Made by a program: the position numbers and the translations under genes. This document shows positions 36,211-36,332 of a DNA stretch of 64,000 nucleotides, piece by piece. This stretch comes from a virus (taxonomy: Duplodnaviria > Caudoviricetes). Under the pieces are notes generated by a model. The model searched no databases, was not told the DNA's origin, and saw only the letters and a list, made by a program, of their open reading frames with translations. Positions within the stretch are counted from its first letter, which is position 1, and each line of letters begins with the position of its first letter. Location: the IMG/VR virus record IMGVR_UViG_2974760311_000001, positions 4,022-68,021 of that record, one strand, 5' to 3'.

Positions 36211-36332
36211 TGGACTCTAGCAGCAATTAACTCCTGAAGAAAAACAACCGAGAGTGCGGGTTCGATTCCCGTCGCCACCCTAGGTGGTGTAGTTCAATGG
36301 CAGAACATTGGTCCTTTGAAAATCGGAGTCCA
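36211..36332 (+). ncRNA. YrlA-like Y RNA containing a circularly permuted tRNA fold (unit 2)
   Basis: Closing stem TGGACTCT/GGAGTCCA; CAGCAATTAACT; then T arm (36256-72), acceptor stem closed by CTA loop (36273-89), TA, D arm GTTC-AATGGCA-GAAC (36292-306), and ACCGA/TTGGT in place of the anticodon stem. Confidence 0.8.

Follow-up and report, generated by a model that had tools for sequence, protein, structure and literature searches.

To our knowledge, Y RNAs with domains that resemble transfer RNA (tRNA) are known only as partners of Ro60 proteins of the TROVE type. The YrlA class, which occurs in bacteria and in cluster C mycobacteriophages, was described as a domain in which a T arm, an acceptor-like stem and a D arm follow each other and make the tertiary contacts of a tRNA, with the motif GNCGAAN0-1G, the proposed contact to Ro60, close to the 5' end, and with a distance of at most 4 kilobases (kb) to a TROVE gene of the same strand, in a search that covered only genomes with an annotated TROVE protein (Chen et al., 2014; PMC4201824). 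Mycobacterium smegmatis possesses the Ro60 protein Rsr together with a YrlA whose acceptor stem of 7 base pairs (bp) is cut by RNase P, after which CCA is added (PMC4201824). In the present work we analyzed a stretch of 64,000 nucleotides (nt) from a cluster L1 mycobacteriophage (positions 4,022 to 68,021 of the IMG/VR record IMGVR_UViG_2974760311_000001), hereafter called the window, in which a gene for a Ro60-fold protein of the DUF2828 family is followed by three small RNA units. The second of these, module 2, holds a tRNA-like domain in permuted order. Since its neighbor is a DUF2828 and not a TROVE protein, such an element would fall outside the scope of the search of 2014. An earlier note, made from the letters alone, had described it as a complete, circularly permuted tRNA fold of the YrlA type without an anticodon loop.

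Close counterparts have been described in other phages. The Ro60 protein of Thermus phage phiLo forms a complex with two Y-like RNAs of the CGAA type (Yrl1 and Yrl2) and the PNPase of the host (PMC12135203; PDB 9KOP, 9L5Y), and the term tRNA-like is not applied to Yrl1 and Yrl2 in that paper. Our locus shares with phiLo a phage-encoded ring of the Ro60 fold, with which the model of our protein aligns at a Z of about 15, and adjacent small RNAs composed of stem, bulge and stem, but the RNAs of phiLo contain the CGAA motif, and its protein can be recognised as a homologue of Ro60. The Ro60-PNPase complex offers a candidate mode of action for a DUF2828 particle. In phage Bas63, the Ro60-like protein gp130, encoded directly upstream of tRNA genes, counters the Ppl defence system according to the PhageMaP study (10.1101/2024.10.10.617714), whose authors guessed that some of the 'tRNAs' near gp130 could be Y RNAs; the countering of Ppl is the sole phenotype given and the partner RNAs are not named.

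Module 2 is a real, conserved and unannotated tRNA mimic. The order and the boundaries of its segments (Table 1) had been parsed correctly to the base in the earlier note, and the bases on which the tertiary contacts of a tRNA depend, said there to be complete at the elbow, were all found (U8, A14, G18 and G19, the T-loop TTCGA and A58). The ends of the RNA do sit at the missing anticodon loop, as had been stated, and run via the anticodon stem into the closing stem of the unit. A strict descriptor consisting of a T arm, a 7-bp hairpin, 2 nt and a D arm with GG matched this site and no other on both strands of the window. The expectation that standard tRNA finders would miss the element was borne out by ARAGORN and by the Rfam tRNA model, neither of which made a call on it in its native order. 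After un-permutation in silico, in which positions 36283-36312 and 36247-36279 were linked by any generic loop of 7 nt, ARAGORN recognised a normal cloverleaf of 74 nt, so that only the anticodon loop is missing. The element does not qualify as a functional tRNA gene, the anticodon loop being absent, the acceptor being closed by a loop of 3 nt and the finders remaining blank. The minimum free energy fold of the single sequence 36130-36400 was no better than that of shuffled sequences (z -0.71) and had the D arm mispaired; as this fold is uninformative, the structure rests on comparative evidence.

Four diverged lineages of cluster L were compared, namely L1, CELFI, L2 (Zakai, Itos) and L3 (Krypton555). 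In all four, the T, acceptor and D stems remain fully paired (16 pairs), and 8 of these pairs carry changes on both sides. Each of the seven acceptor pairs changes between lineages, five on both sides. The Levitt pair 15:48 is A:U in L1, L2 and CELFI and G:C in L3, and the anticodon stem covaries too (ACCGA/TTGGT in L1 versus ACTGC/GCGGT in L3). The two linkers of module 2, 20 and 13 nt long in L1, vary between lineages in length and in sequence. The same three units are present in L2, CELFI and L3, with compensatory changes in their stems. These patterns indicate that the permuted structure is under selection.

A search with the YrlA model of Rfam (RF02553), as had been suggested in the earlier note, gave its best match in the 68-kb phage record at module 2 (39.8 bits, E 6.9e-9, model positions 1-114), which remains under the gathering threshold of 69 bits. 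The match lies 125 nt downstream of the Ro60-fold gene on the same strand, within the limits of less than 4 kb and E<5e-5, the neighbor being Ro60 by fold only. Like YrlA, module 2 presents the order variable loop, T arm, acceptor-like stem-loop and D arm inside a stem that joins the ends, makes the tertiary contacts including a compensatory 15:48 pair, and is accompanied by shorter siblings resembling YrlB; with the YrlA of M. smegmatis it has the 7-bp acceptor stem in common. It differs from YrlA in that its closing stem leads, after three bases, to an unpaired CAGCAA, and in its DUF2828/DUF7788 partner, and the motif GNCGAAN0-1G is absent from 36212-36331. The description as YrlA-like thus holds for topology, design, tertiary contacts and best model match, whereas it fails for the 5' motif, the gathering threshold and the TROVE neighbor. 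A search for a host YrlA in 25 further genomes congeneric with Mycolicibacterium sp. S2-37 (see below) yielded one canonical locus (L180), taken as a control, in which a protein with TROVE and vWA_Ro60 domains (1.4e-53) is preceded by a YrlA bearing GCCGAAUG. This control YrlA gave a partial match of 42.8 bits, likewise under the gathering threshold, while the junction of the tandem genes for tRNA-Leu and tRNA-His in the window reached 36.8 bits with the same model; scores of a genuine YrlA and of a tRNA junction being so similar, model scores alone decide little. Sub-threshold YrlA matches in tRNA clusters are artefacts. We conclude that module 2 would work like YrlA but belongs to a handle class of its own, with another protein family as its probable partner.

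This handle is common to the three modules of the window. In each of them a 6-bp stem joins the ends, and its two strands are separated by 3 unpaired bases, CAGCAA, an interior of variable content and a stretch rich in A; TGT stands before and AGT after each module. Each of them shows the features of the handle at large, i.e., a covarying stem of 6-7 bp, 2-3 unpaired bases and an invariant CAGCAA. In module 1 the closing stem GAGCGC/GAGCTC is followed by AGA and CAGCAA and contains in this phage a G.A mismatch (36149 and 36192); in LeBron and AvadaKedavra the second of these positions is C and the 6-bp stem is perfect, and L2 has the compensatory change to GGACGC/GCGTCC. The inner hairpin of module 1 has 5 bp and an anticodon-like 7-nt loop, AUGGUAA. 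Module 3 combines the closing stem GGTCAC/GTGACC with GAA, CAGCAA and a short inner hairpin, the loop of which reads CUGUUAA and CUGCUAA in CELFI and L3. The covariance model R1 scored 85.7 bits on module 2, a sequence that belongs to its training set, and gave a full-length match of 20.9 bits on module 3. Across 94 sequences, two-sided changes were seen at 7/7 pairs of the handle helix. Among 115 distinct cargos of short modules, hairpin loops of 7 nt occur in 40 (4 in shuffles), and the anticodon-loop pattern Y-U-NNN-R-N fits 24 (0 in shuffles), with loops such as CUGUUAA, CUUUUAA and CUGGUAA.

No family or publication describing the stem-CAGCAA handle was found in Rfam or in the literature on DUF2828 and on 'Ro-like RNA binding protein'. 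A resemblance exists to the Class I RNAs of Dictyostelium (Rfam RF01414; Kjellin et al., 2021, PMC7919456), which share with the phage units a 6-bp end stem starting with G, an unpaired motif that ends in ACAGCAA after the 5' strand, a variable cargo and a short conserved 3' tail. The near-invariant positions of the 11-nt Class I motif (U3, C6, C9, A10 and A11) are all five matched by module 2 (GGACUC-UAG-CAGCAA), whereas modules 1 and 3 miss U3. The tail is CUGU in Class I versus CAGU in the phage units, and no tRNA-like cargo has been described for Class I. The model RF01414 found nothing in the window at E<=10 and gave four full-length matches on modules of relatives at 20.9-23.1 bits, against a cut-off of 41.5. 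The resemblance of the handles may be convergent or due to chance.

The association of gene and RNA units extends far beyond cluster L. One tblastn search retrieved the protein from 707 phage records, which cover many groups of hosts, and phages of Listeria, Bacillus and Staphylococcus as well as Felix O1 have stem-NNN-CAGCAA units directly beside the DUF2828 gene; in both Felix O1 and a Bacillus phage, a single long unit carries a permuted T-acceptor-D domain. In Felix O1 the DUF2828 gene lies directly upstream of tRNA genes. Bas63 is, as we assume, a phage of the Felix O1 type, and its gp130 would be an ortholog of the DUF2828 protein, to judge from fold, position and genus; its action against Ppl would then give a hint of function. 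A loose descriptor applied to 80 IMG/VR loci with DUF2828 counted 424 units on the strand of the gene, compared to 129 on the opposite strand and 86 in shuffled sequences; in 80 loci from bacterial assemblies the corresponding numbers for the two strands were 359 and 121. A covariance model built from 13 long units of unrelated phages placed all of its 111 matches in the IMG/VR loci (E<=1e-3) on the strand of the gene. For 13 modules of unrelated phages, RNAalifold independently predicted the handle, T arm, acceptor hairpin and D arm, with two-sided changes at 18 of the 23 pairs. Among 94 distinct model matches, whose alignment was fitted to the model, 87.7% of the cells pair, compared to 62.6% when shuffled and about 42% when slid, and the covariation score of this fitted alignment was reached by none of 500 shuffles.

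The relatives vary in several respects. Many of their units are located upstream of the DUF2828 gene or among tRNA genes. In most of them the tRNA is broken between the D arm and the anticodon arm, so that an anticodon-like hairpin is kept, whereas the break lies inside the anticodon loop in L1 and L3; some carry the domain without any anticodon stem. In some relatives the acceptor stem is capped by a UUCG tetraloop, and cleavage of the acceptor loop is therefore not a trait of the family. A bacterial example is provided by Mycolicibacterium sp. S2-37 (NZ_JAFEVR010000004.1), in which a chromosomal, probably prophage-borne DUF2828 gene encodes a protein 52% identical to that of the phage. Three stem-CAGCAA units begin 1.1 kb downstream of this gene, and the last of them is a permuted tRNA mimic of the L2 design. 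The best match of the YrlA model in the entire genome of 5.8 Mb is the permuted-tRNA unit, 1.3 kb downstream of the DUF2828 gene. Listeria phage LMTA-94 has three stem-CAGCAA units just upstream of its DUF2828 gene and a gene for an RtcB-type 'tRNA-splicing ligase' 1.3 kb downstream of it, a layout that recalls the bacterial rsr-yrlBA-rtcBA operon.

The protein itself was assigned by Pfam to DUF2828 (1.5e-28) and DUF7788 (6.1e-33), with a weak match to VWA_CoxE. As in Ro60, a ring of helical repeats is joined to a vWA domain with the DxSxS MIDAS motif. The AlphaFold model (pLDDT 90.6) retrieved only Ro60 structures among the top Foldseek matches (1yvr, E 1.7e-7), and VIA-align superposed residues 10-456 on Ro60 (2i91_A) with a Z of 23.4 over 404 aligned residues and a root-mean-square deviation of 3.7 A, compared to a Z of about 10 for chains with a vWA domain only. 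The MIDAS residues D287, S289 and S291 are invariant in 26 homologues, and so are T353 and D381. On the level of sequence the protein is not a member of the TROVE family: Pfam gave no match to TROVE (PF05731) or vWA_Ro60 (PF25045), a sequence search of the PDB returned nothing relevant, and in an hhalign comparison with a TROVE protein the MIDAS stretch was the sole part to align, with a probability of 8%. In a protein atlas that holds no information on eukaryotes, clusters of DUF2828 come from viruses and bacteria.

Between the stop codon of the Ro60-fold gene and the next gene, which starts at 36462, lies a gap of 359 bases (Table 1). No open reading frame (ORF) of at least 50 amino acids (aa) was found wholly inside it; a minus-strand ORF that otherwise overlaps the Ro60-fold gene enters it with its tail only. 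A blastn search with 361 bases around the element gave 99.7% identity to phages UPIE, MAckerman and Zaria and 99.4% to LeBron, and 75 of 75 matches were Mycobacterium phages. The window has three stem-CAGCAA units in total, and all of them fill the space from the stop codon to an intrinsic terminator, which had gone undetected in a pattern scan because the loop limit of that scan was 8 nt. A pattern scan for sigma-70-like promoters found none between the gene and the RNAs, from which we infer one processed transcript. The hairpin directly past the stop codon, which might mark the 3' end of the mRNA or serve in processing, is retained in L2 phages, while L3 has a different hairpin at that spot.

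Table 1. Position of the RNA units, their parts and neighboring features in the window (position 1 is the first letter of the 64,000-nt stretch).
Feature	Position	Strand	Remarks
Ro60-fold protein gene	34684..36102	+	472 aa; relatives in GenBank named 'Ro-like RNA binding protein'
Minus-strand ORF	35548-36159	-	otherwise overlaps the Ro60-fold gene
Gap between genes	36103-36461		359 bases
Hairpin	36112..36132	+	8-bp stem, 5-nt loop, directly past the stop codon; sequence reading
Module 1	36145..36196	+	stem-CAGCAA unit
CAGCAA of module 1	36154-59	+	
Inner hairpin of module 1	36169-36185	+	
Module 2	36212..36331	+	stem-CAGCAA unit; holds the permuted tRNA-like domain
Closing stem of module 2, GGACTC/GAGTCC	36212-17/36326-31	+	6 bp; encloses the tRNA-like domain
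CAGCAA of module 2	36221-26	+	unpaired; preceded by the spacer TAG
Permuted tRNA-like domain	36247..36312	+	every tRNA part except the anticodon loop, in rearranged order
Anticodon-stem 3' strand, ACCGA	36247-51	+	pairs with TTGGT 36308-12
Variable loop, GAGT	36252-55	+	
T arm, GCGGG-TTCGATT-CCCGT	36256-72	+	
Acceptor hairpin, CGCCACC-CTA-GGTGGTG	36273-89	+	7 bp, CUA loop
TA	36290-91	+	U8 and A9
D arm, GTTC-AATGGCA-GAAC	36292-306	+	with G18 and G19
A	36307	+	position 26
Anticodon-stem 5' strand, TTGGT	36308-12	+	
Module 3	36347..36390	+	stem-CAGCAA unit
CAGCAA of module 3	36356-61	+	
Intrinsic terminator	36408..36442	+	9-bp G+C stem, 12-nt loop, TTTTT; sequence reading
NAPRTase-family gene	43871-45346		nicotinamide/nicotinate phosphoribosyltransferase-like (E 2e-38)
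Pnkp gene	45691-46611		kinase and HAD phosphatase (E 7e-53)
RNA_ligase-family gene	50714-51358		PF09414
tRNA-Leu/tRNA-His junction	57312-57426		

Module 2 does not appear in the GenBank records of L1 phages. A tRNA-Thr annotated in the L2 phage Zakai (KX580961.1, 42379-42449) corresponds to the 5' portion of the equivalent unit, comprising the handle, an anticodon-like hairpin with the loop CUGGUAA and the T arm; this is a mis-annotation, because ARAGORN calls no tRNA at that locus. Elsewhere in the window, the genes for Pnkp and for a protein of the RNA_ligase family constitute a pair of the tRNA-repair type, and a gene for a phosphoribosyltransferase-like protein of the NAPRTase family is located just upstream of the Pnkp gene. 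No RtcB was found in the phage. The Pnkp and ligase of the phage, together with the RtcB of the Listeria relative, would by analogy fit a role around damaged tRNA or a tRNA-directed defence.

Taken together, module 2 is most likely a Y-RNA-like partner of the Ro60-fold protein of the phage, bound via the stem-CAGCAA handle and displaying a capped tRNA body. The three RNAs would be transcribed together with the DUF2828 gene and subsequently excised from that transcript. The handle, with its 6-bp stem, 3 unpaired bases and CAGCAA, would be the binding site for the ring protein, in a manner modelled on the binding of Ro60 to the bulged stem of a Y RNA. The cargo of module 2 would then expose the elbow, the 7-bp acceptor helix and the anticodon stem, and since the acceptor end is capped by 3 nt and an anticodon loop is lacking, this body could neither be charged nor decode. 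The tRNA shape might be presented to tRNA-recognising factors, for instance RNase P, enzymes for CCA addition or for modification, or a tRNA-directed nuclease of the host. As the activity of such a particle during infection we propose surveillance of tRNA or other structured RNA, or counter-defence.

Several points weigh against this interpretation. The YrlA score of module 2 is below the cut-off and near that of the tandem tRNA junction, and the CAGCAA handle has no motif in common with known Ro60 sites. No link between DUF2828 and TROVE sequences extends beyond the MIDAS stretch of the vWA domain, so a Ro-like binding of RNA is suggested by the modelled fold and by the linkage of gene and RNAs. 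The proposed surveillance or counter-defence is drawn by analogy. Moreover, in place of the 5-bp anticodon stem of L1 and L3, the L2 phages show an anticodon-like hairpin and a stem of only 3 bp, and in view of such variation of the cargo inside cluster L, the exact L1 topology may not be what matters.

Other explanations have been considered. The element could be a signal for processing or stability that acts in cis, the tRNA shape directing RNase P or another tRNA-processing enzyme without any protein-bound RNA in trans. Its placement in the gene's 3' region and the lack of a promoter-like site between the two would be in line with this, and so would the 7-bp acceptor stem, the main determinant for RNase P, as in the cleaved YrlA of the host. 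We nevertheless consider such a signal unlikely as the explanation, since it accounts neither for the invariant CAGCAA handle on three units here and on hundreds in other phages, nor for the many units upstream of the gene or among tRNA genes, nor for the UUCG-capped acceptor stems of relatives; it would, furthermore, be compatible with a Y-RNA-like partner rather than opposed to it. A canonical YrlA that binds the host Ro60, by which the phage would hijack or titrate Rsr, is very unlikely. GNCGAAN0-1G is lacking, while the control YrlA next to a true TROVE gene has its GCCGAAUG, and the handle accompanies DUF2828 genes in hosts of many phyla. This stands against the presence of Rsr and YrlA in M. 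smegmatis and a design like that of mycobacterial YrlA, with a 7-bp acceptor stem and a loop starting with CUA as in L180. Improbable, too, is a broader joint reading, in which the DUF2828 ring and the stem-CAGCAA RNAs would form a second, undescribed Ro/Y-RNA branch, the capped bodies and the anticodon-arm mimics of modules 1 and 3 would serve as decoys or sensors against tRNA-targeting immunity of the host, and the Class I handle would be present in eukaryotes by common descent.

In the red alga Cyanidioschyzon merolae, circularly permuted tRNA genes encode the 3' half ahead of the 5' half, the acceptor strands lying next to each other, and real tRNAs with anticodon loops are formed from them through a circular intermediate. 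The phage RNA differs from these in having no anticodon loop and in that its ends enter a conserved handle of the protein-binding type. A split tRNA gene that is matured, for example by the Pnkp and the RNA ligase of the phage, into a working tRNA would account for the completeness of the other parts, for the ARAGORN call on the un-permuted form and for the two enzymes, but it is highly unlikely, given that no anticodon-loop sequence exists at the would-be junction, that the linkers differ between lineages, that in L1 the acceptor end is closed by 3 nt and CCA is not encoded, and that relatives have other break points or no anticodon stem; nothing supports re-ligation into a working tRNA. To an equally small degree we believe in a decaying and functionless remnant of two tandem copies of one tRNA. 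Tandem tRNAs are a plausible evolutionary origin, and their junctions do mimic the T-acceptor-D order to the extent of the YrlA score mentioned above, but the acceptor pairing has been kept by compensatory changes though the intergenic DNA of the lineages is only about 70% identical, the Levitt pair covaries, the domain closely resembles none of the nine tRNAs of the phage and is no recent copy of them, and the design recurs on CAGCAA handles in unrelated phages. Least probable of all, and hardly to be entertained, is the tRNA-like piece of a two-piece (permuted) transfer-messenger RNA (tmRNA). Partial matches on the T arm and the acceptor hairpin (beta_tmRNA 15.1 bits, tmRNA_permuted 14.4 bits) are weak and far under the cut-offs of 84 and 47, ARAGORN, which is able to detect permuted tmRNAs, finds none, and a full D arm is present; the RNA gap contains no ORF of its own of at least 50 aa, no search having been aimed at a short tag frame.

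The element corrects the annotation of cluster L phages, in which it is absent from the L1 records and appears as tRNA-Thr in one L2 record. The same tRNA mimic that is known from YrlA is found here on a different handle and beside a different, much more widespread family of phage proteins. Cluster L phages infect M. smegmatis, a tractable host that has its own Rsr-YrlA system and for which phage deletions are routine, so that genetics and biochemistry should allow what the handle, the ring and the tRNA mimic each contribute to be told apart. It is mainly in this testability within a tractable host that the interest of the finding lies.

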